64,000 nt of DNA from a virus. The notes beneath the pieces were generated by a model. That model made no database searches and had not been told where the DNA came from. It saw only the letters and a list, made by a program, of their open reading frames with translations. Shown here piece after piece: positions 9,106 through 62,740 of this stretch (position 1 is its first letter; each line of letters starts with the position of its first letter). The stretch is from IMG/VR virus record IMGVR_UViG_3300037071_003688. The stretch is one strand, 5' to 3'. The position numbers and the translations under genes were made by a program.

Positions 9106-9491
9106 ATGGAAGCCACCACGCCGTATCCAGAGTCCGAGAAGATGCACGCCGTCCACGAGACATCGCAAGTGATCGGCGAGTTCATCGAGTGGCTGCCAAC
9201 ACGCGGCAAGTTCATCGGCACGTGGCGCACCCTCGTGGACTGCCCGGGCGGCGGAGCGTTCTCGAACTGGACGTGCGAGAGTGGCGTCAAGGTCCATGAT
9301 CGCACCGGCGAGGACGGCGGCACTGCCCGGTCTGCGACGGCAAGGGCGTGGTCGAGGCCACGAATCCCATCCCCGAAGTGGACTACGTCGACATCAACAA
9401 GCTGCTCGCCGAGTTCTTCAACATCGACCTGGCGAAGATCGACACCGAACGCCGAGCCATGCTCGACGCGATGCGGGCGGCGAACCCGTGA
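9106..9491 (+). pseudogene. frameshifted Zn-ribbon-containing phage protein (possible sequencing error)
   Basis: MEATTPYPESEK..SQVIGEFIEWL... continues sensibly in the -1 frame from 9324 as CPVCDGKG...INKLLAEFFNIDLAKIDTERRAML...*. Confidence 0.55.
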
Positions 9492-11882
9492 CCAGCAAGC
9501 GCGACAGCGTCGGCCGGGTCGCCGTGTGGGTCACAGACATGCTCGTGCTCAACGCCATCGAGGAGATCGAGCAGGTCGACAACGGATCGGTGGCGTTCGT
9601 GTTCGACGGGCGCCCGATGCGGATCGACATCCGCTGCACCCGGGAGACATCGTGAGCACCATGACGAAACTTCGGGTCGTGGCTGACGTGTGGTACGACG
9701 GCGCGCACTTCGTTCGCCGCGACTGCGACACCGGTGAGGAGATCGAGGAGGGCCGCTGGTGCGCGTCGATCGAAACACCTGACGGCGAGATCACCTGGAC
9801 CGCCAAGTCGCCGGGCGCGGTCGTCAACACCGCTGACCGTTGGGGCGCCGGGCGCGGCCTCCACGTCGAGATCCACTTCCTCACCCCGGTCGGTGGCTGA
9901 TGGACCAGCCGACACATGACAGCATCCGCGCCAAGCTGAGTCGCGCCGTGCATCCGGGCTTCTCGTACTGCCTGCGTTGCGGGTTTCCGTGGGCGGTGGT
10001 CGAGGGCCATCACACCTCGTACGGCGCGAAGCTGATCGAGTCGTACCGGGCGCTCGACGCCGACGTGCGGGCGATGGTCAACTCAGGTCAGGTGTCGCTG
10101 CTCGGCGACGGCGCGTGTTTCCCGCTGTGCGAGAAGTGCTGGGCGAAGCTGACCGTCGAGGAACGCGAGCCGTACTACTGGAAGTTGCTGCGTCTGTGGG
10201 ACACGCCCGACTATCCGCTGTCGGAGGAAGTCGCGCACCAGGTGATTGCCGCCTGCCGGGAGGGACTGTGACGATCGTCGCCAAGATCCACGCCCGGCCC
10301 GGCCGGATCGACTGGGAGACGCTCCAACGCGAGGAGACCGACCAGATCGACTCGATCCCCTGCGACCCGGAGTTGGGTGTGATGTTCGAGCTTCGCCTGA
10401 CCCGCCCACCATCGTTGGAGGGGCGCCGGGCGGTGCTCGTGATCCCACCCGAGCATCTCGGCGGCGTTCTGAAAGCTGTCAAGGCGGCGATGATCGCGCA
10501 ACGCTCGAAGGCGATGACACCATGAGCCACCAGCGCGCCGAGTTCCCGCGGATCGTGGATCGGTGGACGGAGATCTCCGAGGCCCGCATCGCCGACAAGT
10601 CGTTGCGGCCGGACTGCTGCGTGCTCGCCTCGAAGGTGCTGCTCGTGGCGTTCACCGAGGCCGGGTTCGAGGCCAGCGCCGAACCGACGTACACGGTCGC
10701 CACGAACCGGGCGTCATGGCAGTGGCAGGGACGCCCGATCAAAGAGTGGCCACCGGAGGCGTGGTCGGTCGGGGTCGAACCCGGGCAGCGGATCGACACC
10801 GGCTCGTACCCGGGGCATCTGGTCGTGGTCGTCAAAGTCGACGGCGAACTGTGGATGGTCGACGGTTCGTCCGGTCAGTTGTCGCGCCCGGCGAAACAGA
10901 TGACGATCCCCCGTGTGCTCGCGTTCCCGATCGCCAACTGGCCGGACCGGGTGTGGGTCCGCAACTTCGACTGGGCAATCCAGTACACGCCCGCACCATT
11001 GGGCAAGCTGCATCGGGTCGGGAACGACTGGACGAAGAACTGGCGGAAGTACGCCGAACAGATGAGGGAGTGCAACGCATGACACCGTGGCCCGAGCAGT
11101 GGCTCCTCGTGTACCCGGAGGGACGCGGCGTCGTCTACAACCGGCCGGTCGGGATTGATGAGCAACCGTGGGCGGTCGGCGTCGTCCACATCCACCCAGA
11201 CGGCACCGCCACCACCATCCAGTTCGCCCGCCCAGGAAAGCAGGAGTCATGAACGAGGCCCACGACGAGACCGGCCGGTTCGTTCCGGATCCCCGCCTCG
11301 AACGTGTCGGGGATATCTTCGAGAGCTTCGACCGGATGATCGACCACATGGCCGCCCTACTGGTGAAGGGCCGCGCGTTGATCGCGTTCCATCAGCGGAT
11401 GGAGGACCACCTCATGGATTCGCTGATCGAGATCGCCTCGCTCGGCGGACCGGCCGGGGAGGTCGCCGCGGAGGCGCTGATTGTCGCCTGGCCCGAGGCC
11501 GGTTGGGACGACAACATCAACGTGATGTTGACCGACTACGCCCGCAAGATCACACCGGCCGAGTGGCGGCGCCGCAAGCTGGCCGGGGATCTCAACTGGC
11601 CGCATCAGCACCAGGGACTCGACGGCTGGATGGCGTCCTGCGACCAGGACCACGTCGAGTTCGAGGTCCGCCATGACGACTGACATGTGGGTGGTCTGCA
11701 AGTTCAAGTCGGGTGGCGGCACCCAACTTGACCGGTACCCCAACCAGTTCCACGACGTCTCGTTCCACGACAACGAACTCGACGCGCTCCGTGCCGCCAA
11801 CACGACAGGCGGCAAGGCCATCAAGATCGTCCCCGGCGAGAAGCTGGACGACCTGTACTTCGCGTCGTACGGGAATAGCTGA
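9488..11882 (+). other. cluster of about eight small coupled hypothetical genes (e.g. 9900-10271, 10522-11082, 11249-11683, 11673-11882)
   Basis: Contiguous ATGA/GTGA-overlapping ORFs with no recognisable family. Confidence 0.55.
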
Positions 11883-11942
11883 CCGCCGTCCACGGTTCTC
11901 ATCGAGTTCTACCCAAACCCCATAGACAGGAAACCACCCACC

Positions 11943-13301
11943 ATGCCTAGATTCCGCATCTTCACCGTTGTCGCCGGTATCGGCGCAGCGTTCATCCTCC
12001 TCCTGCTGATAATCGGGGTGGCCACCATGTCCCGACAGCGCACCGCCGCCAACGAATGGGGCTGCTCGTTCGGCAGCGGACCGGTCGAGCGGACCCGGCA
12101 ACTCAAGAACCGGCTCGCCCCCGGCGAATCGGGCGGCTACTCGAATGACACGTTGAAGACCGGCCCGGCCGACATCCGCTTCTACTTCATCGACACCAAC
12201 CCGCAGACCGCCGACTTCGGCGCCACCCCGATCGTCGTGCCCGCCAAGGGTTCATCGACCTCTGGTGTCGGCGTCGTCCAAACCTCAACCGAGGTCCAGG
12301 TGCGGTTCGTGATCAACGAGAACTTCTGCGACTTCTACGTCAACCACCTCAAGCGCGTCGAGTCCACAGTGGATCTCAACTACAACGCCAAGCAAGGCGA
12401 GGAGTCGGGGTGGGCGTCGGTGCTCAACCAGACCATGAACCAGAAGTTGATCGAGGCGACCCGCCCGGTGCTGCGCGACGTCGACTACATCACGTTGTAC
12501 ACCAACGGCGCGATCGAGGGCGGCTCCGCCTATGACGTGCTCGCCCGGGAACTGTCAACCAACCTGACCCGCGAGTTGAACGCCGACCTCGGCAAGGAAT
12601 ACTTCTGCGGCCCGAGCTACAAGTTCGACGGCACCATCGACGGCGAGTTCGACAACGGCTGCCCGCCGCTCGAAGTCACCGTCAAGTCGATCACCCCCGT
12701 CAACCCGGATCTGATCACGAACCTGCAAGCCATCGTGAACAACGAGGAGCAGCAACGCAAGATCGAATCCGACACCCGCCTCGCCCAGGAGCAGACCCGA
12801 GCCGAGCAGGAACGGGCGATCGCCGTCGCGCAGGCCAACCAGGAGAAGGCCGTCGCGCAGGCCGCAGCCGACCAGGCGACACAGGTCGCGCAGGCGGCAG
12901 CCAATCAGGAAATCCAGGTCGCCCAGGCGACAGCCGACCAGAACATCAAGGTCGCCCAGGCCAGGGCCGACCAGCAGATCAAGGTCCAGCAGGCTGAATC
13001 CGAGCGTGCGGTCCAGACAGCGCAGAACGAGACTCGACGGGCGAACGAACAGTTCAACGCCGAGACCGATCTGCTCGTCGCTCAGGCTCGTGGCCCGGTG
13101 GCGACCCAGTTGGCGGCGAACAAGACGGCCGACCTCGTGGCGCAGGCCCAATACTGCGTGACTCTGGCAGCGTCCGGGATCCGCTGCGATCTGCTGGCAG
13201 CCGCCGAAGCTGGCACCGTGATCGTGCCCACCGTCAACCTGTCGGGCACCGCTGACGGCGGCTCGGCGGGAACGACGGTCGTACTGGACGCCCGACCATG
13301 A
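11943..13301 (+). CDS. SPFH/band 7 (flotillin-like) membrane protein
   Basis: N-terminal TM helix, SPFH-like core, Ala/Gln-rich 11-aa coiled-coil repeats (QAxADQxIxVA). Confidence 0.75.
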   Translation: MPRFRIFTVVAGIGAAFILLLLIIGVATMSRQRTAANEWGCSFGSGPVERTRQLKNRLAPGESGGYSNDTLKTGPADIRFYFIDTNPQTADFGATPIVVPAKGSSTSGVGVVQTSTEVQVRFVINENFCDFYVNHLKRVESTVDLNYNAKQGEESGWASVLNQTMNQKLIEATRPVLRDVDYITLYTNGAIEGGSAYDVLARELSTNLTRELNADLGKEYFCGPSYKFDGTIDGEFDNGCPPLEVTVKSITPVNPDLITNLQAIVNNEEQQRKIESDTRLAQEQTRAEQERAIAVAQANQEKAVAQAAADQATQVAQAAANQEIQVAQATADQNIKVAQARADQQIKVQQAESERAVQTAQNETRRANEQFNAETDLLVAQARGPVATQLAANKTADLVAQAQYCVTLAASGIRCDLLAAAEAGTVIVPTVNLSGTADGGSAGTTVVLDARP

Positions 13302-22017: not shown

Positions 22018-22053
22018 ACTCTGTTGACAAACCGGGGACAACCTGTGCATAAT
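22014..22053 (+). promoter_or_regulatory. class I promoter with operator-like half site
   Basis: GTGAA-N5-TTGACA-18-CATAAT. Confidence 0.8.
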
Positions 22054-22061
22054 AATGGTGC

Positions 22062-25000
22062 ATGGGAACCACCACGACGAACGTGTACGCCAAGGACTTC
22101 AAGCGCGGTGACCGGCTCGCGTCCGGCTCCACCATCCTCGGCTACCTGAGACTCGCCAAGGGCGGCATCGCCTACATGGTCGAGACCCCCGGCGGCGCCC
22201 GCCGCGAACTCGTCTTCGACGGCCGTCGCAAGTACGCCATCGTCATCGAGACCGACTGAAAGGAAACCACCACATGGTCAAACCCAAGACATTCATCGTG
22301 ACTCTGCGAGGCACCGAGATCACCGACTTCGGGTTCCGCCTCCGGATCGACCTGACCGGCAAGCTCCCCGGCCCCACCAAGTTCGAGACCACGATCACGA
22401 CCCCCGACGAACTCGACGCAGCGATCGACGCCATCGTCGCCGCCGCCGACCGCCCGGAAGGCACCGAAACCTTCCCGGTCAACGGGTTCTACATCTCGGT
22501 CGACCCGAAGGCCGGTCGCTGGCCCGCCGGGTTCAAGGCCCGCTTCGACAAGTCCCTGACCCGGCGCTTCGAGACCATCGCCGCCTAGTCAAGACTGTTG
22601 ACAAACCGCAGACAACCTGCGCATAATACTGGTGTGAGGAAGGGTCCTCACAGGAAAGGAAACCACCACCATGTTGTTCACCGTTGGCTCCCGCTGGCGG
22701 GAGCGGTCGGGCAACGAGTTCGTCGTTGTCGGCAGGCTCGACAACGGCGCCCTCAAGGTCCGGTTCGACGGCGGCTGGACCCTGTTGCTGGCACCGTCCG
22801 AGCGGTTGAAGTGGACGGCGGTCGTCACCAACGACGAGTTCGCGGTGGCGGCATGAGCGTGGACGAACTCTGGATGCTCGTGCTCGCACGACGCGCCGAA
22901 ACCCCGACACCCACCGAGGAGGATGAATGACCGTGTACGGCCTCTACCGAGGCAACCCGAACGAGATCGGCATGATCGCCCCGAGCAAGGCTGCCGCCGC
23001 CACCATGCGAGCGATGTTCGGCCCCGCCTGGAAGGCCCGCAAGCTGACCGCCGCCGAGGCCAACGACCCGTGGGTCCTGGCCGAGATCGCAACGCTGACC
23101 GCCGAGGGAGTGTGGAACGCATGAACCGGGCCACCTACAACCGGGTGAGCGTCGGCGGCGACAACTCCAATGCCGATCTCATGAACGCCGCCCGCTACGC
23201 CATCCTCGCCAACCTCAAGACCGCCAAGGCCCGCTGGGTGATCGGCACGGCGCTCGACCTGTTCAGCCCCGAGAACGTCTACATGGACGGCGAACTGTTC
23301 TCCTACGGGAGCGAACGATGAGAGCACCGATCCCCCGCTACCACGACGGCTGGGACAACGGTGTCGCCTGGGTGCGCTCCGAACTCGGCAAGCGTGACCG
23401 GCCCGGCCGCTGGGCGCGAGCCGCACTCGCCAAGCTGCGGGCGGCGACGCCGTCCGGTTTGCGCGACGACTTCGGTTGGGGCTTCAAGGACGGCGCCGCG
23501 ACCACGCTCGCCAACCACCTCTACACCATCGACAACCTGGAAGGAACCGAATGACCACCCGAGAAAGCAAGACCCCACCGAGGGTCGCCACCGTCACCGC
23601 CCGCGCCAAAGACGTCGAAGTCAGCGGCACCGACCGGGCGCCGATCGTGATACCCGCCACCGCCGACAAGAAACACCCCGAACGTCTCGCCGCCGCGCTG
23701 CGAGGCTTCCTCGCTGACGCTTTCGTCGCCGGGTACGACAGGGCGAACGCCGACATGGCGATGATGGACGGGAACGACGAATGAACGTCAAGATCGAGTT
23801 CAACGTCGAGCCGACCGATCGGACACGGCTCGCCATCGCCCGGCTCACCGGCCGACGCGCCGAAGGGCTGGCGTCACGTGACACCGTCAAGCTGTTCTTC
23901 AAGACGTACGGGCTGAACGGCTACGAGTTGATCGCCGAGGAGATCGGCCGCATCAACGAGGAAGCTGCCCGGATCGCCAAGTCTCTCGCCACGGAAGGGG
24001 CATCATGACAACCACCACCCGCACCCGAGTCACCAAGCGCGAGGCCGAGCGCACGCTCAACGCCGTGAAGCGCATGTTCCGGGCGTACATCTCCGAGGGC
24101 TACGGTCCCGAACTTCGCAAGGACTGGGACTGGGGCTGGACCACCGAGGCCCATTACGACTGGGCGATCGTCTGGGAAGACGGCTCGCCCTACGACTGGA
24201 CGTACCTGTTCCCCGGCGGCGGCATAGACGAGGAGTTCGGCTTCCGCCACACCGAGGTCGAACTGCCCGAGGGTGTCTGGACCGAGGCGATCACCGGTTG
24301 GGCGCTCGCCATCTACCCGAAGGACTGGTGACCGATGAACGCTGAACTCCGCTCCCTCATCCGGCTCCGCGACGCTGCGTTGCGGGATCTCGACCGGGCC
24401 GACCGGATCGACAAGGGGAGCCGCTGGCTCACGCACCCGGACGAGATGCGCAGCCTGTCAGCCCGCTTCCACGAACTCGACGCCCGGGTCGAGGCGATGG
24501 GCGAGTCACCATGATCCTGTTCGGCTGGATCGTGGAAGCACTCACGATCGACTTCCTCATCTTCGATCTCATCCACCACCTACGAAAGGCACACCACTGA
24601 TGGACCCAGAGGCAACACTTGCGATCGTCAACGACGAAGCCGCCACATCGGATGAGCGTGACTTCGCTGCGCTCGACCTGCTGGTCTGGCTCGCCAAGGG
24701 TGGCGTCCTGCCCCCGATGGAGGGGCTGCGCCCCAAGGCTGATCTGATCGAACGCTGCGAGAGTCGAGTGATCGGCGCCATCGAGGGCTACGAGGAACGC
24801 TGATGCCCGAGCATGACCTGCCACCCGCCTGGGACATGGAACACGAGTTGTACCTCCGAGCCTGCGAAGGCGTCGACTGGAACTACTCGGAGACCTTCAC
24901 CGACCCGTGGGTCGACTACTGCGACTACTGCGAACGCGAGGGCCACACCTTCCGCTCCTGCCCCGCCCGCGACGACGACCCCGACTACTCCGAGGAGGAT

Positions 25001-47655: not shown

Positions 47656-47660
47656 CGGAA

Positions 47661-47682
47661 TGTCGCCGCTGTCGCGTATGCT
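47661..47682 (+). promoter_or_regulatory. class II promoter (TGTCGCC-N9-TANNNT)
   Basis: Same spacing at 6002, 7327, 18705, 21463, 25837, 29538, 35886 and 37109. Confidence 0.65.
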
Positions 47683-47689
47683 GACGGTT

Positions 47690-47793
47690 GGATCCCGGTC
47701 GGCCCCCAACGCTGGTTGTGATCCTTCGGGTGAGGGTTGTCAGGCGTGTTTCCGTGGTGGTTTCCCGCCGACGACCCTCACCCGCTTCGCGTT
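47690..47793 (+). ncRNA. candidate trans-acting antisense sRNA
   Basis: Follows a class II promoter. Hairpin GGATC...GATCC, then a 19-bp stem (47727-47746/47766-47784, one bulge) whose loop contains GTGGTGGTTTCC, then a CTTCGCGTT tail. Confidence 0.65.
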
Positions 47794-47909
47794 CAGCCCG
47801 CCGCCTTGCGTGGCGCACTTCACATGGTGCTAACATCCCGCCACTCACGCGGCAACGGCCCGGACCTCGCCCCGCCGCACAAACCGCCCGGACGGAAGGG
47901 TCAAAACGG

Positions 47910-48602
47910 ATGCAAGCAGCGGTCCTCGAACGTGTCCTCGACTGGCGACCATTCCACGACGAACGGTCACTCGATCATCCAGTCCGGGACCGGCTCCCGG
48001 ACCACTGTCGCCGCCGCCTGCGAATGTGGCAGGCCGGACGCCAACTCGACCAAGGGTTCCACAGTGGCAGCGTCGGCTACGGCTGGACGACAGAGTTGCA
48101 AGCGGAACCATCGACGTTCAACAGCACCCTCCCCGCCGAGCACTTCGCGACGCACCTGTACCGCCAGGCGCAACAGGTCGATGACTTCCCCGGCGAGTCG
48201 TACCTCGGCACGAGCGTGCTCGCCGCCGCCAAGGCGCTGCACTCGGGCGGGTACATCGCGTCGTACTCGTGGGCGTTCACCATTGACGACGTGATCGACG
48301 CCGTGGTCGAGATCGGCCCGGTCGTGATCGGCATCCCGTGGTTCGAGTCGATGTCGACCACCTCCACATCGGGCATGGTCGAGGTCAACGGCCGCATCGT
48401 CGGCGGGCACTGCGTCACCATCACCGGCTACGACCCGCAGCTACAACTCCCCGACCGGATAATGCCCGACGAGGCGCTCCGCTGGCGGAACTCGTGGGGC
48501 GACAGCTACGGCGACCAAGGCGACGGCTACATCCGCGCCGAAGACCTCGAACACCTCCTGTGGGGCCGCTACGGCAGCGAGGCGTGCGTACCGATCGGTT
48601 GA
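47910..48602 (+). CDS. papain-like (peptidase C1) protein with Ser at the catalytic Cys position
   Basis: LDQG...SVGYGW, GTSV, GPVVIGIPW, GGHCVTITGYD, RNSWGDSYGDQGDGYI. Confidence 0.8.
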   Translation: MQAAVLERVLDWRPFHDERSLDHPVRDRLPDHCRRRLRMWQAGRQLDQGFHSGSVGYGWTTELQAEPSTFNSTLPAEHFATHLYRQAQQVDDFPGESYLGTSVLAAAKALHSGGYIASYSWAFTIDDVIDAVVEIGPVVIGIPWFESMSTTSTSGMVEVNGRIVGGHCVTITGYDPQLQLPDRIMPDEALRWRNSWGDSYGDQGDGYIRAEDLEHLLWGRYGSEACVPIG

Positions 48603-48830
48603 CTTGCTAACACTGGTCTAGGCGACTAGGGTTACTGGTATGGAAACCACCACGATCACCAGAACGCATCACCTGGCGTTCCGCCTGTCCCTCGCTCTCC
48701 CCGTCTGCGGGTCGAATGACGGGGGCGGACTCCTCCTCGACCCCGACCGGGTGACCTGTGAAGACTGCCGCCGGATCTGCGGCCTCGGCCCGAAGCCGCT
48801 GAGTTGGGACGAGGCGTACGACCTGGTTCG

Positions 48831-49406
48831 ATGAGACTCGTGAAGTCCACTGAGGACGACGGCCAACGCGCCGAACTCGGCGTCGTGTACCGACTCGAAC
48901 ACCCCGCCATGCCGTTCGCGGTGTGGAACGGCGAGAAGTTCGTCGGCCCCCGCGAACGCTTCCACCTCCGCCTGCTCGAACTCGCCGACCGCGCAGCGGG
49001 CGGATGGATCGAACGCGTCGCCGGTCCAATCACCGGCGTGCTGCTCGTACCCGAGATCGAAAGCGCCTACTGCACGACCTGCGACTGGGACGTGACACCG
49101 GGCTGCAAGCCCCGCTCGCACCGGATCACCGACGAGATGGCTCCCAACCGCGAACTGCTCGCAGCGATCGACTCAGTGACCGCTCCGTGGCTCGAAGCCG
49201 AAGCCGAAGCGCGCGCCGCGGCCGAGGTCGCCGAGATCCTCGTGCGCGCGTTCAGGTGGGAGGCCAACGAGGGCTACCCGTACGTGCCGTCCGCGATCGA
49301 GACGGTGGCACTCTGCCGCCGACTCAACCAACTCGACGCCGACGACTCGGAACGGGCGACCATCGAGGCACGGTTCCCGGATCTGGTCTGCAAACTACAG
49401 GCGTGA
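48831..49406 (+). CDS. hypothetical protein
   Basis: ATGA-coupled to the METTT gene 48640-48834. Confidence 0.5.
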   Translation: MRLVKSTEDDGQRAELGVVYRLEHPAMPFAVWNGEKFVGPRERFHLRLLELADRAAGGWIERVAGPITGVLLVPEIESAYCTTCDWDVTPGCKPRSHRITDEMAPNRELLAAIDSVTAPWLEAEAEARAAAEVAEILVRAFRWEANEGYPYVPSAIETVALCRRLNQLDADDSERATIEARFPDLVCKLQA

Positions 49407-49487
49407 AACTAAGTTGACGAACTCTGGACAGGGGCGGTATACTCCCGATGTGATTACGATGATTGCATTCGGGTATCGGAGATCGGC

Positions 49488-49862
49488 ATGACCGACGTGA
49501 CGACGTGGCAGGAGGTCGAGCCGCGACTCAAGAGGCTGACGTACCGTCAGATCGACTACTGGATCCGCACGAACGCCATCGACCTCGAAGGCCCGGCGCA
49601 AGGCTCCGGGTCGAAGCGCACGTTCTCCGACGAGGACGTGTGGCGCTTGGAGATCATCGAGCGGCTGGTCGACCTGCCATCGCTGCCATCGGGCATCCCG
49701 GGCGAACTGATCCGACTGATCTGGAACTACCTCGAAGGACGCCACCGTTCGCGTGCCACCGACACGCACATCTTCATCACCGGCAACCCGCGCGAGGGCT
49801 GGAAGGTGAGCACCAAGTTCGACCCGGCGCTCGACTCGGCCGTCGTGCTGCGCATCCGGTGA
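49488..49862 (+). CDS. MerR-family HTH regulator
   Basis: LTYRQIDYWIRT...AQGSGSKRTFSDEDVWRLEII; class I promoter TTGACG-18-TATACT at 49414. Confidence 0.8.
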   Translation: MTDVTTWQEVEPRLKRLTYRQIDYWIRTNAIDLEGPAQGSGSKRTFSDEDVWRLEIIERLVDLPSLPSGIPGELIRLIWNYLEGRHRSRATDTHIFITGNPREGWKVSTKFDPALDSAVVLRIR

Positions 49863-50034
49863 CCTCGCATCTCGTCATCCGCGCGGTCGAGATGCGAAGC
49901 GGCGACGCCCAGCTATGGCTCGACACCGACCATCAGCGCATCGTGGACGTGTTCTTCGACCGCAGCCAACACCACAAACCGGACCCTGGCTTCGGGCATC
50001 TGTTCGTGGTGATCGAGATCCTCGCGAAACCTAC

Positions 50035-50064
50035 TTGACTCCCGATCGGTCCAAGGTTTACGGT
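50035..50064 (+). promoter_or_regulatory. promoter for the RNA array/Ro60 operon
   Basis: TTGACT-18-TACGGT, followed by a 5' hairpin at 50073-50119. Confidence 0.55.
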
Positions 50065-50140
50065 GTCCCCTCGTCCGGTCAGGCAGGTGACCTCCGCGGG
50101 GATCTGAGTCTGGCCGGACAACTTGACAACTTAAGATCTC

Positions 50141-50221
50141 GTGTGCCCGGTGCGTAGGTGACGGTTACTTCTCCCTTTACATGGAAACCAAGCTCCGTTG
50201 CCGTCTGGTTCTCGGGCACAC
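50141..50221 (+). ncRNA. Y-RNA-like unit 1
   Basis: Closing stem GTGTGCCCG/CGGGCACAC; GGTGCGTAGGTGACGGTTACTTC...CCGTTGCCGTCTGGTTCTC scaffold. Confidence 0.7.
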
Positions 50222-50232
50222 TGCACCATCGT

Positions 50233-50387
50233 TTCCGGCTGGTGCGCAGATGAGGGTTCCTTCGCATATGGAGCGGGTAGTCACAGGTTCGAGTCCTGTT
50301 CACGCCACCAGGCCCGCAAGGGTCGGTGTGATAGCTCAGTTGGCAGAGCGCCAAACAGTCCCCTTGTTGATCGGTTCTCAGCCGGAA
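50233..50387 (+). ncRNA. Y-RNA-like unit 2 (YrlA-like, circularly permuted tRNA domain)
   Basis: Stem TTCCGGCTG/CAGCCGGAA. T-arm ACAGG-TTCGAGT-CCTGT, TCACGCC-ACCA, GCAA linker hairpin, GGTGTGA, D-arm TAGCTCAGTTGGCAGAGC. Confidence 0.85.
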
Positions 50388-50394
50388 CACACCC

Positions 50395-50512
50395 TTTCCG
50401 GGTGGTGCGCTGATGATGGCTACTTCGCAAGTTCGATTCTTGTCATCCCCACCACATGGGGATGTGGGCATGGCGCCCGCACTGCCTTCGCCGCCTGGTT
50501 CTCACCCGGAAA
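50395..50512 (+). ncRNA. Y-RNA-like unit 3 (permuted tRNA domain)
   Basis: Stem TTTCCGGGTG/CACCCGGAAA. T-arm GCAAG-TTCGATT-CTTGT, CATCCCC-ACCA-CAT-GGGGATG acceptor hairpin, short D-like arm. Confidence 0.8.
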
Positions 50513-50519
50513 CGATCTC

Positions 50520-50619
50520 TCTGGTCGGTGCGCAGATGGGAGTTACTTCAACGGATGAAACGGCTTCGGCCGTCGTGGCTCGAAACCACAAGCCTCCCGC
50601 CGCCAGGTTCTCGACCAGA
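50520..50619 (+). ncRNA. Y-RNA-like unit 4
   Basis: Stem TCTGGTCG/CGACCAGA; scaffold motifs; cargo ACGGC-TTCG-GCCGT and GTGG-CTCGAAA-CCAC. Confidence 0.75.
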
Positions 50620-50628
50620 AAACTCGAC

Positions 50629-50749
50629 CCTGCCCGGTGCGCAGATGACGGATACTTCCTTCACACATGCAGAAGGTCCCCGGAGCGGCGGTAACCAATC
50701 CGTGCCAGCTTGGGAACCAGTCCCCGTTGTCGCTCGGTTCTCGGGCAGG
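50629..50749 (+). ncRNA. Y-RNA-like unit 5
   Basis: Stem CCTGCCCG/CGGGCAGG; GGTGCGCAGATGACGGATACTTC...CCGTTGTCGCTCGGTTCTC. Confidence 0.75.
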
Positions 50750-50760
50750 ACTTCCGCATC

Positions 50761-50853
50761 TGCGGTGCGATGACAGAGGTTCCTTCTCACCAGGGCGCAA
50801 GCCCACGAATGCCGGAACGAGAGACCGGCGCCCTCCGTCGCCTGGTTCTCGCA
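50761..50853 (+). ncRNA. Y-RNA-like unit 6
   Basis: Short stem TGCG/CGCA; GGTGCGATGACAGAGGTTCCTTC...CCTCCGTCGCCTGGTTCTC. Confidence 0.65.
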
Positions 50854-50907
50854 ACCAACCAATGACCCCAACGACCCAATGACCCAACCCTGAAAGGGGC
50901 AACGACC

Positions 50908-52521
50908 ATGAGCAAGTTCGCTCAAACCGCCACGACCGCCCGCCCGCAGGGGCCGCTGCACACCCTCCCCGGTGTTCAGACGCGCACCCACGAGGGCGGT
51001 CTCGGCTTCGTCAAGGACGCCCGCACCGAACTGTTCTCGCTCGGCGTCGCGAACTTCGTCGCCGAAGACACGTACTACGAGAAGGCCGGTGTCCGCGACA
51101 AGCGGTTCACGGATCTCGTGCGCGAGGTCACGGCACTCGACCCGGACTGGGTCGCGCACTTCATTCCGTGGCTCCGCCAGGAAGCGAACATGCGCACCGC
51201 TTCGGTGGTCGCCGCCATCGAGTACGCCCGCGCCGCTCCCGGCACGAACGGCCGCGCAGTGATCGCGCAGACGCTCACGCGCGCCGACGAACCAGCCGAG
51301 GCGCTCGCCTACTGGATGTCGCTCTACGGCCGCAAGATCCCCAAGGCCGTCAAGCGCGGCATCGCCGACGCCGTCGTCAAGCTGTACACGCAGAACGCCG
51401 CCATGAAGTACGACTCGCGCGACGCCAAGATGCGGATGGGTGACGTGATCGACCTCGTCCACCCCAACCCGCACGACGCGCTCCGCTACTGGGAGCAGGA
51501 CGACATGGGCATGTCGGACAGCGACGTGGAACTCCTCAAGGACCGCGTCGTGGAGCGCAAGCGCGCCCTGTTCCAGTACCTCCTCGACAAGCGCCACGGC
51601 CGCGACAACCCGCGCGGCCTCGACCGGCTCGGCAAGATCTCGGCCCGCAAGGACGCGATCAAGGCCGCGGCCGAGGGCGGCGAGTTGGACGTGACGACGG
51701 GCATGACGTGGGAGACCGCGTTGTCGCTCGGCGGCTCGAACGCGGAGACGTGGCAGAAGGTCATCCCGCAGATGGGCTACATGGCTCTGCTGCGCAACCT
51801 GCGCAACTTCGAGGACGCCAAGCTGCCCGCCAACGTCCTCATGCAGGTCGCGTCGACGCTGGCCGACCCCGAGCAGGTCGCCAAGTCGCGCCAGTTCCCG
51901 TTCCGGTTCCTGTCGGCGTGGTCGGCGTCCGGCTCGATGATGTGGGGTCAGGCGCTCGAACTCGCGCTCGAAGCGTCGTGCGCCAACATCCCCGAGTTCC
52001 CGGGCAAGACGCTGATCATGGTCGACGTGTCGGGTTCGATGGACGGCAAGATGTCGGCCAAGTCGACGGTGTCGCGCAAGGTCGCCGGTGCCGTATTCGG
52101 CGCGGCCGTGATGAAGCGGTCGGCTCCCGGCTCGAAGCTCGGCGTGTACGCCACGCTGTGCGCCGTGCAGGACAAGCCACGCTCGGTCCTGCGCACCGCC
52201 GAGGAGATCGGCAAGCTGTCGGGCGTCGGCGGTCACGGCACGAACACGTGGCCATCGACGTGGATGCTGTGGCAGGAGTACGGCCCATTCGACCGGATCC
52301 TCATCTTCACCGACGAGCAGCACCACCCATCGCACATCACGGCCGGTTCGTTCCCCAAGGACGTCCCGATCTACGTGTGGTGCCTGGGCGGCTACCGTCC
52401 GGCGTCGCTCGACCTCGGCACGGGCCGCTACCTGCTCGCCGGTCTCAACGACCAGTGCTTCAAGCTGATCAAGATCCTCGAAGCCGGGTCCGAGGGACGC
52501 TGGCCGTGGGAGGTCGACTGA
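50908..52521 (+). CDS. rsr: Ro60/Rsr-like TROVE + vWA RNA-binding protein
   Basis: THEGG.GF..D...ELF, EDTYYE, WLRQEANMR, RADEPAE, KIPKAVKRGIADA, KYD, MGYMALLRNLRNF, KSRQFPFRFLSA; vWA MIDAS DVSGSM, GT and FTDEQ. Confidence 0.95.
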   Translation: MSKFAQTATTARPQGPLHTLPGVQTRTHEGGLGFVKDARTELFSLGVANFVAEDTYYEKAGVRDKRFTDLVREVTALDPDWVAHFIPWLRQEANMRTASVVAAIEYARAAPGTNGRAVIAQTLTRADEPAEALAYWMSLYGRKIPKAVKRGIADAVVKLYTQNAAMKYDSRDAKMRMGDVIDLVHPNPHDALRYWEQDDMGMSDSDVELLKDRVVERKRALFQYLLDKRHGRDNPRGLDRLGKISARKDAIKAAAEGGELDVTTGMTWETALSLGGSNAETWQKVIPQMGYMALLRNLRNFEDAKLPANVLMQVASTLADPEQVAKSRQFPFRFLSAWSASGSMMWGQALELALEASCANIPEFPGKTLIMVDVSGSMDGKMSAKSTVSRKVAGAVFGAAVMKRSAPGSKLGVYATLCAVQDKPRSVLRTAEEIGKLSGVGGHGTNTWPSTWMLWQEYGPFDRILIFTDEQHHPSHITAGSFPKDVPIYVWCLGGYRPASLDLGTGRYLLAGLNDQCFKLIKILEAGSEGRWPWEVD

Positions 52522-53071: not shown

Positions 53072-53130
53072 CGTGGCGGTTTCCTTCCCGTGGGAGGCGT
53101 CTCCTCCCACATCAACATCGTAACACGGGT

Positions 53131-53170
53131 GTCAAGTCTGTTGACAAACCGTGGACGATCTGCGCATAAT
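53131..53170 (+). promoter_or_regulatory. class I promoter with perfect palindrome
   Basis: GTCAAGTCTGTTGACA-18-CATAAT. Confidence 0.85.
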
Positions 53171-53634
53171 GATGGTGGACATGGAAACCACCACCAACTA
53201 CATCACCGTCTTCCCGGCGACGAACAATCGGCGGGGCTGGATGGTCGCCACCCGCGACGGCGCGAACATCCGCCACGTCCGTTTGGAGACGGCTTCGATC
53301 CACGACCCCGAGGCCGCACGAGCCGAGGCAGCCAAGCTGTTCCCCGGCAAGGCGATCTACATGGCCGGTGACACGGTCAAGCCGTGGGAGGCGGCTGCTT
53401 GATGCCACGAACCCTCACCGCCCGCTACACCGGGACCTGCCGCCGCTGCGACGGCCCGATCACCCCGGGCGACACCATCCTGTTCCTCGGCAAGCGCAAC
53501 ACCGTCCACGAGAACTGCGCCGAGCGGGCCGAGTCGGGCGTGATCGAGATCTACTTCCCCTCGACCGGCAACCGGATCACCCGCAACCGGCGGGGCACCT
53601 GCGAAGACGCCCCGGCGTGTGGATGCTGCACCTT

Positions 53635-54100: not shown

Positions 54101-54673
54101 AATGGTGTGAGGGAAGGTCCCTCCGCTGAAAGGATCCGGATGTTGAGCAACTGGGGCGCCTACCCCGTCGAGCGGTTGAGACCGGACAGCGAGACCTGGG
54201 AGAGGGGCACGTGCTACCTCGGCTCGTGGGCCGACACCCTCCTACGAGCCGCCTACGAGCGTGGCGAGGACGAAGCGGTCACCGCCGATGGCTGGCGGTA
54301 CAGGTACGCCTACGACAGATGAAAGGAACCACATGACAGACTTCGACCGAATCGCCGAGGCTTTCGCTGATGAGTTCGGCCGCACTCCACCGATGCATTG
54401 GGAGGTCTGCGGCGCCTGTAGCGGCCGGGGCATCATGACGTTGAAGCGGCTGGCGATCTCGTCCGAGGACTTCGACGCCGACCCGGACTTCCGGGAGGAT
54501 TACTTCAACGGGGTGTACGACGAGCCGTGCGACGAGTGCCGGGGCCGCACCACCGTCTCGGTGATAGACGAGAGCCGCCTGACGACCGCGGAGGTCGCCT
54601 GGGTCGAGGAGTGGTGGGCCGACGAGCGGGACTACGCAGCGTTGGTCGCGATGGAACGCCGGATGGGTTGCTG

Positions 54674-55396: not shown

Positions 55397-55436
55397 GTGA
55401 AATGTGTTGACAAACCCGGGACGACCTGGGCATAAT
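55397..55436 (+). promoter_or_regulatory. class I promoter
   Basis: TTGACA-18-CATAAT. Confidence 0.85.
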
Positions 55437-55446: not shown

Positions 55447-56718
55447 ATGGAAACCACCACGATGACCACCAACCTGAGCTTCACTCCCATCGAGTCGACG
55501 CTCACCGGCGTGAGCATCCACCTCGCCGACTACCTGAACGTCAAGCTCGCCAAGATCAACAAGCGGCTCGCCAAGATCGGCGCTCCCGCCGCCACGTTGA
55601 CGTTCGGCCCGGAAGTCGAGCGCACCGAGACCGACGAGTTCACCGGTTTCAAGCGCACCTTCCGCGAGTTCGAGTTCGTCACGGTCACCGGCTTCGAGGC
55701 CAAGTTCGCCGGTTGGACCGGCGTCGCCGTCCTCGACTGGCGGCTCGACCCGCACGAGGCATTGGTCGCCAAGTTCCCCGGCGAGGAAGACACCGCCGTT
55801 AGCGAGGTGTTCGTCCGGGAGGGCGCCTGGTGCGACCACTGCAACAAGATCCGCTCCCGCAACACCACGGTCCTGTTCCGCCACGAGGACGGCACCGAGA
55901 TGCGGGTCGGCACTTCCTGCATCCTCGACTTCATCGGAGTCGACCCCTCCAACGTCACGTGGCTCGCCACCCCGATGTTCGGCGGCGCCGACGACGAGGA
56001 GGAGTTCCGGACCGGCGGTGGCCGCTTCGAGGTCTCGCCCGCCGAGTTCCTCGCCGCAGCCGCCGAGGCGACTCGCCTGTTCGGGTTCGTCAAGTCCCGC
56101 CCCGACACCGCATACGACACGCCGACCCGGTCGCACGCCGCGACGCTCTGCTACCGCCGCCTCAACGACTACGAGAAGAAACTGTACGCCGAGGTTGACC
56201 ACGGCCGGGGCGCCGCCGAGGCCGACAAGATCCTCGCCTGGGTCGATGAGGTCAACGACTTCTCCGACTTCATGCGCTCCGCCAAGCTCGCCTGCCGGGC
56301 CGATCGGGTCATCGACCGCACCGAGGGTCTGCTGGCGGCGCTGCCCTTCTCCTACATGAAGGCGATGGGCAAGCTCGCCGAGCGCAAGGCAGCCGCCGCC
56401 GCCAAGCCCACCGACTTCCTCGGAACGGTCGGCGAGAAGCTGACGGTCGAGGGCACCGTGACCTTCAAGATGGCGATGGAGCCTTACGCCTACAACGGGC
56501 CGACGCCCTATCGACTGACCATCGTCACCGACGACGGCTACACGCTCACGACGAAGGGTTCCGGCAACACCCTCTGGGAGGCCGAGGTTGGCGACCGGAT
56601 CACCTGGACCGGCAAGGTCATCGAGCTTGAGGATCACGAGAAGTGGGGCAAGCGGACCGAGTGCCGGATGGTCAAGATCAAGATCCTCGTCCCCGCCGCC
56701 GAGGCCACCGACGAATGA
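55447..56718 (+). CDS. large early phage protein with CxHC...VGxxC zinc motif and OB-fold-like C-terminus
   Basis: CDHCNKIRSRN...VGTSC; C-terminal FLGTVGEKL...TGKV...H. Confidence 0.7.
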   Translation: METTTMTTNLSFTPIESTLTGVSIHLADYLNVKLAKINKRLAKIGAPAATLTFGPEVERTETDEFTGFKRTFREFEFVTVTGFEAKFAGWTGVAVLDWRLDPHEALVAKFPGEEDTAVSEVFVREGAWCDHCNKIRSRNTTVLFRHEDGTEMRVGTSCILDFIGVDPSNVTWLATPMFGGADDEEEFRTGGGRFEVSPAEFLAAAAEATRLFGFVKSRPDTAYDTPTRSHAATLCYRRLNDYEKKLYAEVDHGRGAAEADKILAWVDEVNDFSDFMRSAKLACRADRVIDRTEGLLAALPFSYMKAMGKLAERKAAAAAKPTDFLGTVGEKLTVEGTVTFKMAMEPYAYNGPTPYRLTIVTDDGYTLTTKGSGNTLWEAEVGDRITWTGKVIELEDHEKWGKRTECRMVKIKILVPAAEATDE

Positions 56719-56732
56719 GAAAGGAAACCACC

Positions 56733-59700
56733 ATGACGACCGACGCCTGGACCGAAGCCCACCGCTTCCCGTTCAACACCGACGAGAACTGGTCCGAAAC
56801 CGAGGAAGGTCTGCTCACCATCCACGACATGAACCCGGGTCTGATCGCCCCCGGGATCGCCGCCCGAGTGATCTACGAACTGCGCCTCGACGTCGCCCGC
56901 CTCAACAGCGAGGCCATCGAGGTCACCGCCAAGTACCGGAGGGAACTCGCCCTCCGCCTGGCAGCCGAAACCGAACTGGCGCTGATCAAGACCGCCCTGC
57001 GAGACCTCACCGCATGAGAAAGGAAACCACCACGATGACCTGGAACTACCGCAAGTACGGCGGGCTGGTCACCTACACCACCGACATCAACACCTTCGCT
57101 TGTGTTGTCGAAGGCTGGGATGACGGACCGTGGAAGTGGTACGTCTACGAAGATCCGATGACCCACCACTACGGCGGGACGCCCGAGTCGGCCGGTGAGG
57201 AAGCCACCATCAAGGAAGCGATGGCCGCGGCCGAGAGCTACGCCACGGCGGTGACACGATGAGCGGCGAGATCACGATCACGATCGTGCCCGACTCCCCG
57301 TGCCCCGACTGCGGCGCCGCCTGGGGTCACCCGGACAAGGCGCTTGACTTCCCGAACCGCCCGAAGGTCGGCGACGCCGATGGGACCTGGTGGTGGAAGT
57401 GCTACAACCCCGCCTGCGCCCGGGACTACTACCTGCCGCTGCTCTAACCGAAAGGAAACCACCATGACCACCCACCGACTCGTGATCCTGAGCTACGAGG
57501 ATCCCACCTACCGCCACGTGATCGCCGAACGCGAGACCGAGGCGAGCCTGGCCCGCATCTCGGCCGGGGTCAACATCAACCTCAACCACGACGAGTTCTT
57601 CACCGAGATCGAGGAGGTCGACGGCGATGAGTGACACCCGCTGCCTGGAAGCCGGGCCGGACTGCCGGGGCCGGGTCGAGATGTGGACGACGGACGGCCT
57701 GCGCTACTGGCCGCGCTGCGACTTCCACGGCGAACGCCGCTTGGAGCGGTACGAGAACTCGCTCGAACGCTACGCCGATAGCCCGCTGGCGCCCGACTGG
57801 TTCGATCCGACCATCGCCGGTGAACGCTGGGACGACGACTACTGATGCTCAAGACTCCGTCAACAGAGTTGCCAACCTCGGACCATCGAGGTAAGGTTAA
57901 GTGCAAGAGAGGAGAGGAATGACCACGACATACACCCGCCGCTACTTCCTCGAAATACGCGGCTCCCCCGAGGTGGAAGTCACCGAGGCCGAGTTCGTCG
58001 CGGCTGAACGAGCGAACGGCATCAACCCCAGCTACGGCGAGGATCCGGACCGGCCCGTCACCGGCGGCTTCGGCAATGCTCGCATCCGTGCCCGCACGGA
58101 GACCATCTACAACTAGGAAAGGAAACCACCACATGGACACACTCGGATTCGGACTGCGCAACGCAGTCCCCAACACCGCCGAAGCGGCATGGGGCGCACG
58201 CTTCATCATCTACGCCGATGGCGGAGTCGACTTCGTTCCCAACCGGACCGACGTCGTCGGCACCACTGAGAGCAAGGCGGCACTGCTCGCACTGCTCAAC
58301 GAGAAGCTGCCGAAGCGGGCACTGATCGACATCATCAGCGCCAAGATCAAGGCGTACGAGATCTCGACACGAGAACCCAACGAGGTCGTCCTGTTCGACG
58401 CTGACGGACTCAAGGTCGTCGGCAACTCGAACGGCTCGCACGGCTACTTCTACGTCGCCGCCTTCCCCACCGCGAGCGTCGCATGAGCGCACTCCCTGTC
58501 GCACTTGACGACGGCCGATCGACCGTGGCACTGCGGATCCTGTCACACCGTGCCCGCAGGAACCTGACCCGGCTCGTGCCCGACCTGGACAACTGGTGCT
58601 CGATGCGCGACGGCCACGTGTTCCTCATGGCCAGCGACGATCTCGACGCCGCGCTGGACGCCATGCCGCGCTACTGCCGGGGTTCGATCCGGCCGCTCAA
58701 GCGCCTCCCATCCGGTGACGGTTGGGGCCGGGCATGGCGATCGGTGACGACATGAGGCTCAAGCCGTTCGCGGTGACGCTGACCTACTTCGTCGGCAACA
58801 TGGGCACGTCGTCCACCATCGACGTGTGGACGGCGACGGCGAAGGCGGCGCGCGAGTGCGGCGAGTCGTACGCCCGCGAGGAAGGCATCCCCGACGCCAC
58901 GATCACGGTCACCCCGCACCGTGAATACTCTTGACAACCCTAGTCCGGATGGGAGATAATACAGACGTGACAGAAACCACCACCATCTACCGGATCGCGG
59001 AGGGCACCGAGACCGCGGACGGCGTCAAGCCCGTCTGCGTGATGTTCGCACTCTGCGACAACGACGCCACCTTGCTGATCCCCCACCCGGTCCTCGACTG
59101 GGTGTTCTCGTGCGAACGCTGCGCCCGCAAGCTGGGCTACGACGTCAACGACAACCTGCTCACCGCCGACGTCAGCTTCGACTGAAAGGAAGCCACCATG
59201 ACCACCTCCACCCCCGCCGACATCAACCGGCTCGCCACCCTGCTCGAACGAATCGAGATCCTCGCCAACAAGATCGACATGCCATTCGAGACCGACGTCG
59301 GAGCGAAGTACATCCGAGTGGTCGACACGAGCTACAGCCGCTCGGTCCACGCCTTCGTTGATCGCGAGACCGGCGACCTGTTGAAGGCTGGCGGCTGGAA
59401 AGCCCCCGCCAAGCGTAAGGGCGGCCCGGCGACTGTCGGCAGCCTGCTCAACGACGACGACTTCGCCACCATCCTCGCCCGCGCCGACCGCTACGGCGGC
59501 TACCTCTACAAGCGTCCCTGACCGAAAGGAAACCACCACATGACCACCGACGATGACATGGTGTTCGACAGCCGATACGCGCTCTACGGGTACGCCAGGG
59601 CCGAGGCCGCTGACGCCCTCATTGACGAGTTCATCGCCACCCTCACCACCGAGGATCTCGACGGGATCCACAACGCTGTGAGCGATGAAGCCTGGGCGCT

Positions 59701-60801
59701 GGTCGACCGCTGCTCGACGTGGTGCGTCGCCCGCGGGATCGACATCAACGCCCTCGGGTTCTCCGACACGGCGTCGCGCGAGTGCTTCCTCGACGCCGCC
59801 TTCGAGCGCAACGCCGAGGCGCCGCTCACCGCGATCGAGGTGGCCGAGACGCTGATCAACGGCAACATCTCGACGGCGCGCGAAGCGATCGTGCTGAACC
59901 ACACCCCGCACGAGGTCGCCGTGTTCACCATCGACGTCGTGCTCGCCCTCGCCGAACTGAGCGGCGAGGCGGACGACGGAGGCGCCTTCGCCGAGGCGCT
60001 CGGGCGGGTCCGCAGGTGCGTGAACCGTGGCTGAGATCTGCGAGGCCACCGGCGGCGAGGCTTCCATCAGACGATGGCGATGCTGTTCGCGATGGGCGCG
60101 AGGCGCTCGGTCTCGTCAAGTGCCTGCTGCCCCGCGACATGTGGGACGCGCTCCCGGGCGGGGTCCCGTACTACGTCATCCTCGACAAGTCAACTCTCTT
60201 GACGAACCCGGGACGAGGCGAGTAGTGTTTCAAGAAATGAAAGGGAAACCACCATGAAACTGATCCTCAAGATCCCTGACGGCGTCGACCCGGTGCTGGC
60301 GATGGAAATGACCATCGACCGGATGGAGGCGCTCTCCGATGTCGGTCACTCGCCTGCGCCCGGCCCATCCCGATTCGATCTCGACTTCGGCATCGACCAC
60401 GGCCTCGGCTGGTGGAAGATCGAACCATGAGCGGCGTCGAACGCTTCGAGTACCCGCAGTCGCCCGGCGACTGCTACATCGAACTCGGCGAAGTGATCGG
60501 CGCCGGACTCGCCGACGACGACCGGCTGATCCTCGACGCTGACGGCGCCTCGAACTACATCGCCAACCTCATCAGCGGCTTCACCGGCGACGAGGTCGAC
60601 GGCGACGGCGACCCCTGGTCGATCGTCTGCGAACACCTCCACGGCCTGCTCCACAACCTGAGCGAGGCTCTGCACTACACGAACCCGGACGCGCCCTACA
60701 GCGATCTGGGCGACGCTGGTGTTCTCGTCCGCGAGTACCTCCGCGACGAGTACGGCCTCGAAGTCAACCCACCCGCCAAGCCCACCCCGCAACAGGAGTA
60801 A
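56733..60801 (+). other. early-type cluster of small genes (56733-57017, 57464-57634, 58133-58486, 59198-59521, 59540-60034, 60254-60430 etc.) with class I promoters at 57869, 58931 and 60199
   Basis: Repeated GAAAGGAAACCACC leaders and TTGACA/TTGCCA/TTGACG promoters. Confidence 0.6.
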
Positions 60802-62010: not shown

Positions 62011-62011
62011 T

Positions 62012-62040
62012 TTGACAACCGTTCCCATTTCGTGTAAAGT
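62012..62040 (+). promoter_or_regulatory. class I promoter
   Basis: TTGACA-17-TAAAGT, ATG 7 nt downstream. Confidence 0.75.
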
Positions 62041-62740
62041 TAAATATATGGGAACCACCACTGCTAGGTCAGCCCGATCAACCAACAACCATCCGAAGCC
62101 GATCACGGGCCGGGTCACCGAGTTCCGGATCGGCCCCTACCGAGTGCTCGAAGCGGGCGATGAGGCCGACGTCCACTTCCCCGAGAAGCGCAAGTCCTAC
62201 CGTCGAGCGAAGTTCGTCTACGCCGTGGGCAACACGCTGGTGTTCGTCAAGCCTGACACCGGCGGACTGGTCGGCGTGCTGCCCGACAAGGTCGGCACCA
62301 TCCACCGTCTGAATCGTTTGAGAGGCTCCGAATGACCACCATCCGATTGAAGATCACCTACGAGTGGTCCGGTCTCGAAGAACTCTGCCTCCCCCAAGCC
62401 GACAAGGTGATGGCCGCTCTGATGGCGACCGATGACCGCGAGCCACGAGCGTTGAACCGACCGAAGGTGTCGATGGACGTGAAGCTGATGTCGCACCGCT
62501 ACGAAGGCCCGGACCGCCCGTACGAACAACCGGTCGAGCACGAATGAACCTCACCCTGACCGCCGAGCAGAACGCCGACCGGGAACGGCCGACTTGTGCG
62601 ATCAAACTTCCGTCGCACGTCGGCACGCCCGCCACATGGGCAGACGCCAATCACCCGCAGTGGTACGTATGCGACCGCCACCGCCGCCAGTACGAGGAAC
62701 GAGCGGACGAGTTCGGCCCGTTCGCCTGGGAACCAATCTG

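Follow-up and report, generated by a model that had tools for sequence, protein, structure and literature searches.

A 12-nucleotide tag at uncoupled gene starts of an uncultured actinophage-like genome and a predicted, conserved phage RNA element that carries its complement

Why should unrelated proteins of one phage begin with the same few amino acids, and why should the nucleotides that encode them recur as the untranslated spacer between a Shine-Dalgarno (SD) sequence and a start codon? These questions are raised by a 64-kb stretch of viral DNA (65% G+C) from IMG/VR record IMGVR_UViG_3300037071_003688, referred to here as the window, in which a sequence of 10 to 12 nucleotides (nt), GGAAACCACC, which we call the tag, is used in both ways. 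A codon-usage gene model of the window gave ~170 short genes, almost all on the plus strand, which include those for a large terminase, a RecA-like ATPase, a TROVE/Ro60 protein and a papain-like protease; no tRNA genes were found in the 64 kb. As many as 109 starts overlap or abut the preceding stop codon (ATGA or GTGA) and are therefore translationally coupled. The closest database proteins are those of actinobacteriophages, at 30 to 38% identity, and among 50,697 records of known phages we found no DNA-level match to the window or to its promoter cassette. One window protein is also on record on a 147-kb contig, and the window is therefore part of a large, uncultured actinophage-like genome.

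The window holds 31 matches to the tag with at most one mismatch, compared with 4.16 ± 2.04 in shuffled sequences. The plus strand carries 29 of the 31, so that the tag is a short asymmetric repeat of at least 10 copies, nearly all in one orientation. Translation starts account for 26 copies, each reading in the direction of its gene; four lie away from starts (17580, 20913, 25766 and 57199), as does a reversed copy at 47.7 kb. In the leadered form, a stop codon is followed by the SD sequence GAAAGGA, the tag as spacer, 0 to 3 nt and ATG. This arrangement occurs at 12 starts (11943, 22274, 22671, 43535, 45347, 56733, 57035, 57464, 58133, 59198, 59540 and 60254), which bears out the claim of a preliminary description of this DNA that the tag lies 5′ of the start in leadered genes. 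In the near-leaderless form, the tag makes up codons 2 to 5, and the start codon lies 6 to 10 nt after the −10 element of a TTGACA-type promoter, termed class I below. The preliminary description had named nine such genes (9106, 22062, 41720, 44620, 46308, 48640, 53181, 55447 and 62048), and at every one of them we found an ATG that lies 6 to 10 nt past the −10 element of a strong class I promoter and has the tag, or a variant with one mismatch, immediately after it, giving an N terminus of METTT, MGTTT or MEATT. Classified by position, 13 or 14 copies end 0 to 4 nt 5′ of the ATG, i.e., at the position of a ribosome-binding site (RBS), and 12 lie at +3 to +14 within leaderless open reading frames (ORFs).

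The starts that carry the tag have one thing in common. The tag was found at none of the 109 coupled starts, whereas 24 of the 55 uncoupled starts (gap of at least 10 nt) have it (P = 6 × 10−14). The tag therefore marks sites of de novo ribosome loading. In a relative found in IMG/VR (G001), whose 66.9-kb contig covers only the part matching window positions 1 to 23.7 kb together with DNA upstream, the tag is missing from ~40 kb outside the small-gene region.

This distribution is also what would be seen if the tag were solely a cis-acting enhancer of initiation, an A/C-only, structure-free stretch that aids the loading of 30S or 70S ribosomes on either side of the AUG, with the complementary RNA loop described below being unrelated or secondary. 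Downstream of GG the tag consists of A and C only and is unable to self-pair, it sits exactly where de novo initiation is needed, and Thr-rich N termini encoded by ACC are frequent in untagged genes too, ACC ranking second among codons at position 2. Many A/C sequences would do for this purpose, however, yet one exact 10- to 12-mer recurs at ~26 sites, and the exact tag is kept across relatives with 54 to 83% protein identity. Furthermore, the GAAAGGA that precedes the tag is presumably the only part able to pair with the 3′ end of 16S rRNA (going by the usual anti-SD sequence); the tag is A/C rich yet invariant across relatives, and its conservation thus goes beyond 16S 3′-end pairing. As to pairing of the tag with 16S rRNA outside the SD sequence, an 8-nt match to helix 20/21 was considered uninformative. 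We consider a cis-acting enhancer to be a rather unlikely explanation, and the promoters that drive the tagged and untagged starts bear on it further.

Two promoter classes can be recognized in the window. Class I has the form TTGACA-N17/18-nAnnnT. Class II has a GAAyTGTCGCC box, a 9-nt spacer and TAnnnT, with 12 matches against 2.3 expected in the window; its sites include 7327, 18705, 25837, 29538, 35886 and 47661, and the perfect copies, among them 18705, 25837, 29538 and 35886, are all on the plus strand. Because it has no canonical −35 element, class II probably needs a phage factor. The tag is present at 15 of 18 promoter-proximal starts of class I and at none of 5 of class II (P = 0.0017), the untagged class II-driven genes being 7355, 18734, 25884, 29596 and 35914. 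Several class II promoters have a leaderless start 6 to 7 nt after the −10 element, and the starts at 7355, 18734 and 35914 are leaderless yet lack the tag, which is therefore no general requirement of leaderless translation in this host. That class II starts, whether leaderless or SD led, manage without the tag argues against an enhancer as its sole function.

Class I promoters resemble one another over ~60 bp, with up to 92% identity between nonorthologous sites, and gene order near tagged starts differs between relatives. Both features would suit a role of the tag in DNA, as an operator for a DNA-binding protein, as a microhomology for recombination or as a relic of the shared ancestry of duplicated promoter-start cassettes. 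We regard any such role as very improbable. Thirteen tags lie at operon-internal junctions that have no promoter, the tag keeps a fixed orientation and spacing relative to the start codon, it is found after five different −10/discriminator types, and the single reversed copy lies within a covarying RNA stem-loop. The proposal in the preliminary description that the tag serves as a microhomology for the shuffling of early gene cassettes found no support: in the one rearrangement that we examined (window 22062 versus the relative), homology does not resume at the tag but ~30 nt further on.

Selection on the nucleic acid and not on the peptide, which had also been proposed, is well supported. From gene-body codon usage, 0.0003 genes would be expected to begin GAA-ACC-ACC-ACN, whereas six of the nine near-leaderless starts named above do so exactly; with 31 matches against 4.16 expected, the tag is thus far more frequent than the SD sequence and ACC codon bias would predict. 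Codon 2 of the tag is either GAA, a minority codon (34% of Glu codons), or GGA, a rare one (8.5% of Gly codons), the codons preferred by the genome being GAG (66%) for Glu and GGC (65%) for Gly. Since Met-Glu and Met-Gly N termini differ in methionine removal, the tagged proteins do not have a common mature N terminus. Gene 22062 is leaderless and begins MGTTTTNVYAKDFK, and its G001 orthologue begins MTALSLFPKDFK at an ATGA overlap and has no tag; similarly, the orthologue of gene 44620 (METTTATL...) in relative L018 starts at a GTGA overlap and lacks ETT. Two genes thus lack the ETT or GTT N terminus where they are coupled in relatives, which implies that selection acts on the RNA, not on the peptide. 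Gene 22671 changes form in another way, having a 5′ hairpin and an SD-tag leader in the window and a near-leaderless ATG followed by the tag in the relative's orthologue. Where orthologues have retained the tag, it stands out as identical sequence between promoter spacers and codons that have diverged, and conservation reaches as far as the second base of codon 5, precisely the point up to which the sequence is complementary to the RNA loop described next.

The reversed tag at 47.7 kb, the sole reversed copy away from gene starts, falls within a 254-nt gap between genes (47656 to 47909). This gap contains a perfect class II promoter box (47658 to 47682; this and the following features are on the plus strand), which is kept upstream of the RNA in all relatives. 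It is followed by hairpin 1 (47690 to 47724), which starts ~7 nt after the −10 element, at the predicted transcription start (+1), and has a C-rich loop in which CCCCAAC is conserved; hairpin 1 folds in every homologue, with compensatory pairs. Hairpin 2 (47727 to 47784) has a stem of ~19 bp and a 19-nt apical loop (47747 to 47765) and is present in all eight sequences that we compared, namely, the window and seven homologous loci recovered from public assemblies via the downstream protease. The 3′ half of this loop is GTGGTGGTTTCC (47754 to 47765), the exact reverse complement of the 12-nt tag. A cis-acting enhancer would leave this complement unexplained.

The gap, the promoter box and both hairpins are kept in all seven homologous loci, and 18 of 18 loop bases are identical in the eight sequences, the flanking protease being 54 to 83% identical. 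The stems of hairpin 2 covary, with 96.6% of cells paired and six pairs showing double changes in a model-fitted alignment of the eight sequences, an alignment that leans towards the structure; the observed value was reached by 0 of 500 shuffles, and slid controls were 30 to 59% paired. Relatives L016 and L017 differ at this locus by a 13-nt indel and are otherwise identical, and the locus is therefore not coding. All of the relatives that have the RNA also have both forms of the tag.

Rfam gave no match to the RNA at the gathering score or at an E value of ≤5 in the interval 47600 to 51000, and an identity with 6C small RNA (sRNA; RF01066) was rejected as there was no covariance-model match. 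A search of 185,579 bacterial and archaeal genomes with the loop 18-mer did not find the RNA; the 88 matches were all unrelated, mostly ETT-coding repeats on the other strand, and this absence rules out that the RNA mimics a host RNA or lies in a prophage in those genomes. Scans for loop-variant homologues, using either the stem arms only or the promoter plus the stem, gave among the matches listed only unspecific ones and no true homologue. Distant carriers of a C1-like protease (46 to 54% identity) are not syntenic, and the covariance model found no RNA in them, nor does the 66.9-kb contig of G001 hold a homologue of the RNA region or of the TROVE gene. In the window, no association with starts was seen for the complement of the hairpin 1 loop. 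Downstream of the RNA, an extended −10 element (TGnTAnnAT type) is conserved at 47815 to 47830 and at homologous positions, between the RNA and the papain-like protease gene (47910 to 48602), which suggests a separate promoter and a leader of ~70 nt for the protease gene.

A phage or host protein might instead read the tag on the mRNA, acting on early messages as a RegA-like translational repressor or a RegB-like endoribonuclease. The strictness of the tag in sequence, strand and position would suit a sequence-specific RNA-binding protein, and there is a precedent in T4, whose RegA and RegB act on the initiation regions of many early messages and shut them off posttranscriptionally. We identified no candidate protein, though, and the conserved complementary loop would be left without a reason, which makes a protein reader quite improbable in our judgment. 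The T4 effectors are proteins that recognize a loose consensus, whereas the effector proposed here is an RNA with an exact 12-nt match.

Taken together, the exact complement, the invariant loop, the covarying stems, the promoter class and the predicted duplexes described below support at the sequence level the suggestion in the preliminary description that the tag is the target of the RNA at 47.7 kb; the pairing itself we infer. On this evidence, a trans-acting sRNA probably binds the tag by base pairing within the region covered by the ribosome and would thereby switch off translation of the early genes. The sRNA, ~105 nt long (47690 to about 47795), would be made from the class II promoter and would show the exact complement in its 19-nt loop. 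The tag would then be a regulatory handle placed in the ribosome footprint wherever a ribosome loads de novo on class I (host sigma-70-like) transcripts. In leadered messages it would occupy −14 to −1, after GAAAGGA and before the start codon, and in leaderless messages the target would be at +3 to +14, which would account for unrelated proteins beginning METTT. Leaderless mRNAs, which are common in Actinobacteria, have no 5′ untranslated region and so offer no other place for the target; the tag would lie inside the ORF for this reason, and the same letters would consequently be coding in one context and noncoding in the other.

The predicted pairing between loop and tag comprises 12 bp, or 13 bp where a G comes next after the tag or where AUG adjoins it (G-U, then G-C). 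At 23 tagged starts, the duplex is predicted to have an energy of −22 to −26 kcal/mol, and a score of −20 kcal/mol or lower was obtained for 15.9% of all starts versus 1.9% of internal control windows. The duplex would cover the end of the SD sequence, the spacer and sometimes the AUG in leadered messages and positions +3 to +14 in leaderless ones. As both duplexes would fall within the ribosome footprint, occluded initiation would be the simplest outcome. Such pairing would shut off the tagged first cistrons, and through the ATGA or GTGA coupling of the other 109 starts, silencing would spread along whole early operons. The onset of class II transcription would put an end to the production of early proteins, and a temporal switch of this kind, driven by a class II RNA, is plausible because the RNA and its targets use different promoter classes. 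We infer the production of the RNA, its repressive effect and this timing from the layout of the sequence. As to the wider proposition that a single phage sRNA under a second class of promoter sets the timing of translation of the whole host-polymerase-dependent early regulon, or shuts it off, by means of a 12-nt tag, we are evenly divided.

Several points weigh against repression by the sRNA. The promoter and the 3′ end of the RNA are predictions, and the RNA has no U-tract terminator. Tag and loop are invariant in all of the relatives found, so there is no covariation between them, and the case for pairing is consequently one of complementarity. A duplex scan of the whole window at −23 kcal/mol gave 25 sites, compared with 5 to 22 for shuffled loops, a modest excess in G+C-rich DNA. 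A single sRNA would need to titrate ~26 abundant messages, and the tag itself may aid ribosome loading. Finally, in Cluster K mycobacteriophages, which have a comparable start motif (see below), two distant members, Unicorn and Ekdilam, have an unchanged motif and a different loop, so that a matching loop is not universal in such systems.

The individual sites are as follows, on the plus strand unless stated otherwise. As codons 2 to 5 of leaderless genes, the tag occupies 9108 to 9119 (MEATT; ATG 9106, promoter 9069 to 9098; the G001 orthologue is also tagged), 22064 to 22075 (MGTTT; ATG 22062, promoter 22024 to 22053), 41722 to 41733 (ATG 41720, 6 nt from the −10 element of promoter 41685 to 41713; kept in the L014 orthologue), 44622 to 44633 (ATG 44620, promoter 44580 to 44609), 48642 to 48653 (ATG 48640; kept in the L014, L018 and L263 orthologues), 53183 to 53194 (ATG 53181, promoter 53141 to 53170; kept in orthologues) and 55449 to 55460 (ATG 55447, promoter 55407 to 55436; kept in the L014 orthologue), gene 55447 having a further in-frame ATG 15 nt downstream. 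Variants lie at 46310 to 46321, with GAG at codon 2 (ATG 46308, promoter 46273 to 46301), and at 62050 to 62061 (MGTTT; ATG 62048, promoter 62012 to 62040).

As the SD spacer, the tag lies at 11929 to 11938 (before ATG 11943), 22262 to 22273 (before ATG 22274, at an operon junction), 22658 to 22669 (before ATG 22671, behind promoter 22598 to 22627 and a 5′ hairpin), 43525 to 43534 (before ATG 43535, behind promoter 43465 to 43494 and a 5′ hairpin), 45337 to 45346 (before ATG 45347; kept in four relatives despite diverged flanks), 56723 to 56732 (before ATG 56733), 57022 to 57033 (before ATG 57035), 57454 to 57463 (before ATG 57464), 58121 to 58132 (before ATG 58133; kept in the L014 orthologue), 59528 to 59539 (before ATG 59540) and 60244 to 60253 (before ATG 60254, behind promoter 60199 to 60228). 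A variant at 59188 to 59197 precedes ATG 59198, and the L015 orthologue has the exact tag there.

The preliminary description had overlooked a number of starts. A tag variant at 58972 to 58983 follows the leaderless GTG at 58967 (promoter 58931 to 58960), and a tag at 34162 to 34173 (ETTT) follows TTG 34160, a start inferred from the reading frame and an SD-like run upstream. On the minus strand, a variant at 53075 to 53084 serves, in its own sense, as the SD spacer before ATG 53072 to 53070, behind its own promoter and 5′ hairpin. A further variant, at 33184 to 33193, lies behind promoter 33131 to 33160 and a 5′ hairpin whose loop also displays the 3′ part of the tag; its start codon is uncertain (ATC 33194 or ATG 33248), and ATC 33194, which is in frame with the ORF modelled from ATG 33248, could be a noncanonical start. 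The tag is also found in a six-codon leaderless mini-ORF (33533 to 33553; METTGL) whose stop codon overlaps the GTG of gene 33550 and which resembles a portable leaderless start joined to that gene by termination-reinitiation. The start of gene 60254 is similarly overlapped, through ATGA, by the end of a short out-of-frame ORF (60228 to 60256).

Three leadered tag starts follow a class I promoter, two of them with a 5′ hairpin at the predicted +1, and start 54140 has a promoter, a hairpin and then GAAAGGA but no tag. A G+C-rich hairpin that starts exactly at the predicted +1 and is followed by an SD sequence was seen after some class I promoters (22634 to 22651, 43501 to 43517, 54107 to 54123 and, on the minus strand, ~53112 to 53096); these are probably stem-loops that stabilize the 5′ end of the mRNA.

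Exact-pattern scans of IMG/VR for SD-tag-ATG and for the leaderless cassette gave, besides G001, single unrelated copies only, and protein-guided searches of IMG/VR with the TROVE protein and a 423-amino-acid protein found nothing. One of the layouts seen, at 3200 to 3260 of L012 (IMGVR_UViG_3300031539_000004, an unrelated 129-kb phage of 69% G+C), is the same leaderless arrangement as in the tagged genes of the window: TTGACT, 17 nt, a −10 element, 6 nt and ATG, followed by the tag and further ACC codons. This copy is the single one in 15 kb and could be due to chance, the search pattern having selected for such a layout.

Elsewhere in the window, the TROVE/Ro60 gene (50908 to 52521; Pfam E value, 4e-19) is preceded by an 869-nt noncoding gap (50035 to 50908), itself preceded by a class I-like promoter. 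Within this gap, 50276 to 50352 gave a subthreshold Rfam match to YrlA (Y RNA-like; 32 bits, E value of 2e-4), with mimicry of a T arm and a D arm. The same gap-plus-TROVE arrangement occurs in relatives L014 and L016.

The known features closest to the tag are the start-associated sequences (SAS) of Cluster K mycobacteriophages, GGGATAGGAGCCC (Pope et al. 2011, PMC3203893), and of Cluster EF Microbacterium phages, GGGAAAGGACCCC (PMC7302621). These are short asymmetric motifs present in 10 to 19 copies in one orientation (PMC3203893, PMC7302621); they overlap the RBS of nonstructural genes that follow intergenic gaps, are linked to SigA-like promoters (ESAS) and are conserved beyond 16S pairing. 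The tag is likewise short, asymmetric, in one orientation, associated with genes after gaps and conserved beyond 16S pairing. It differs in that its sequence is unrelated to those of SAS, in that it is the spacer downstream of the SD sequence and not the SD sequence itself, in that half of its copies lie inside leaderless ORFs, a use not described for SAS, and in that its complement is part of a dedicated RNA of two hairpins, itself conserved and preceded by a promoter of a separate class.

Each K1 genome has a single reversed SAS, as Pope et al. pointed out (PMC3203893). In Adephagia (JF704105), we found the reversed SAS at 58682 to 58694, where 12 of 13 bases match; a strong hairpin in the gap between gp92 and gp93 (record positions 58640 to 58720) displays it in its apical loop, and late transcription has been reported to start in this region. 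Conservation of the hairpin region extends to 155 Cluster K records. A loop that is anti-SAS throughout was seen only in K1-like members, the loop in other members being pyrimidine rich and similar to an anti-SD sequence. No covariation between motif and loop was found in Cluster K: Unicorn and Ekdilam have an unchanged SAS and a different, pyrimidine-rich loop, with pairing only in two blocks of 3 to 5 bp. The parallel with Cluster K1 is thus suggestive and has no support from covariation.

The nearest known mechanism is that of the c4 antisense RNA of P1 and P7, a phage-encoded, structured, trans-acting RNA whose loops pair around the RBS and block translation (PMC12197685). Like c4, the window RNA shows target-complementary sequence in a loop (an exact 12 nt in a 19-nt apical loop on covarying stems), repression being a prediction here. 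It differs from c4, which acts on one operon (icd/ant) in immunity, in having as candidate targets ~26 start regions spread over >50 kb, some of them in coding sequence. The 6C/B11 sRNA of high-G+C Gram-positive bacteria is chaperone independent and binds several mRNAs through hairpin loops (PMC6486639). The C-rich loop of hairpin 1 is reminiscent of it, but the window RNA is phage encoded and has no Rfam match, and its proposed functional loop is G/U rich with an A/C-rich target. Particular to this phage are the dual coding and noncoding use of the tag and the promoter-class logic.

SAS have been catalogued in actinobacteriophages since 2011, and their role was still called unknown in 2024 (PMC11373665). 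The present locus makes the question testable, as it supplies a partner RNA, untagged class II starts as an internal control and genes that gain or lose the tag with their position. It suggests that regulation by base pairing may be imposed on leaderless mRNAs, at the price of a fixed N-terminal peptide. If our proposal is true, it would provide the first mechanism for start motifs of the SAS type and the first case of sRNA targeting that dictates a shared N-terminal peptide on unrelated proteins, and the tag and its RNA would constitute a compact, portable switch for the coregulation of many genes in high-G+C hosts.

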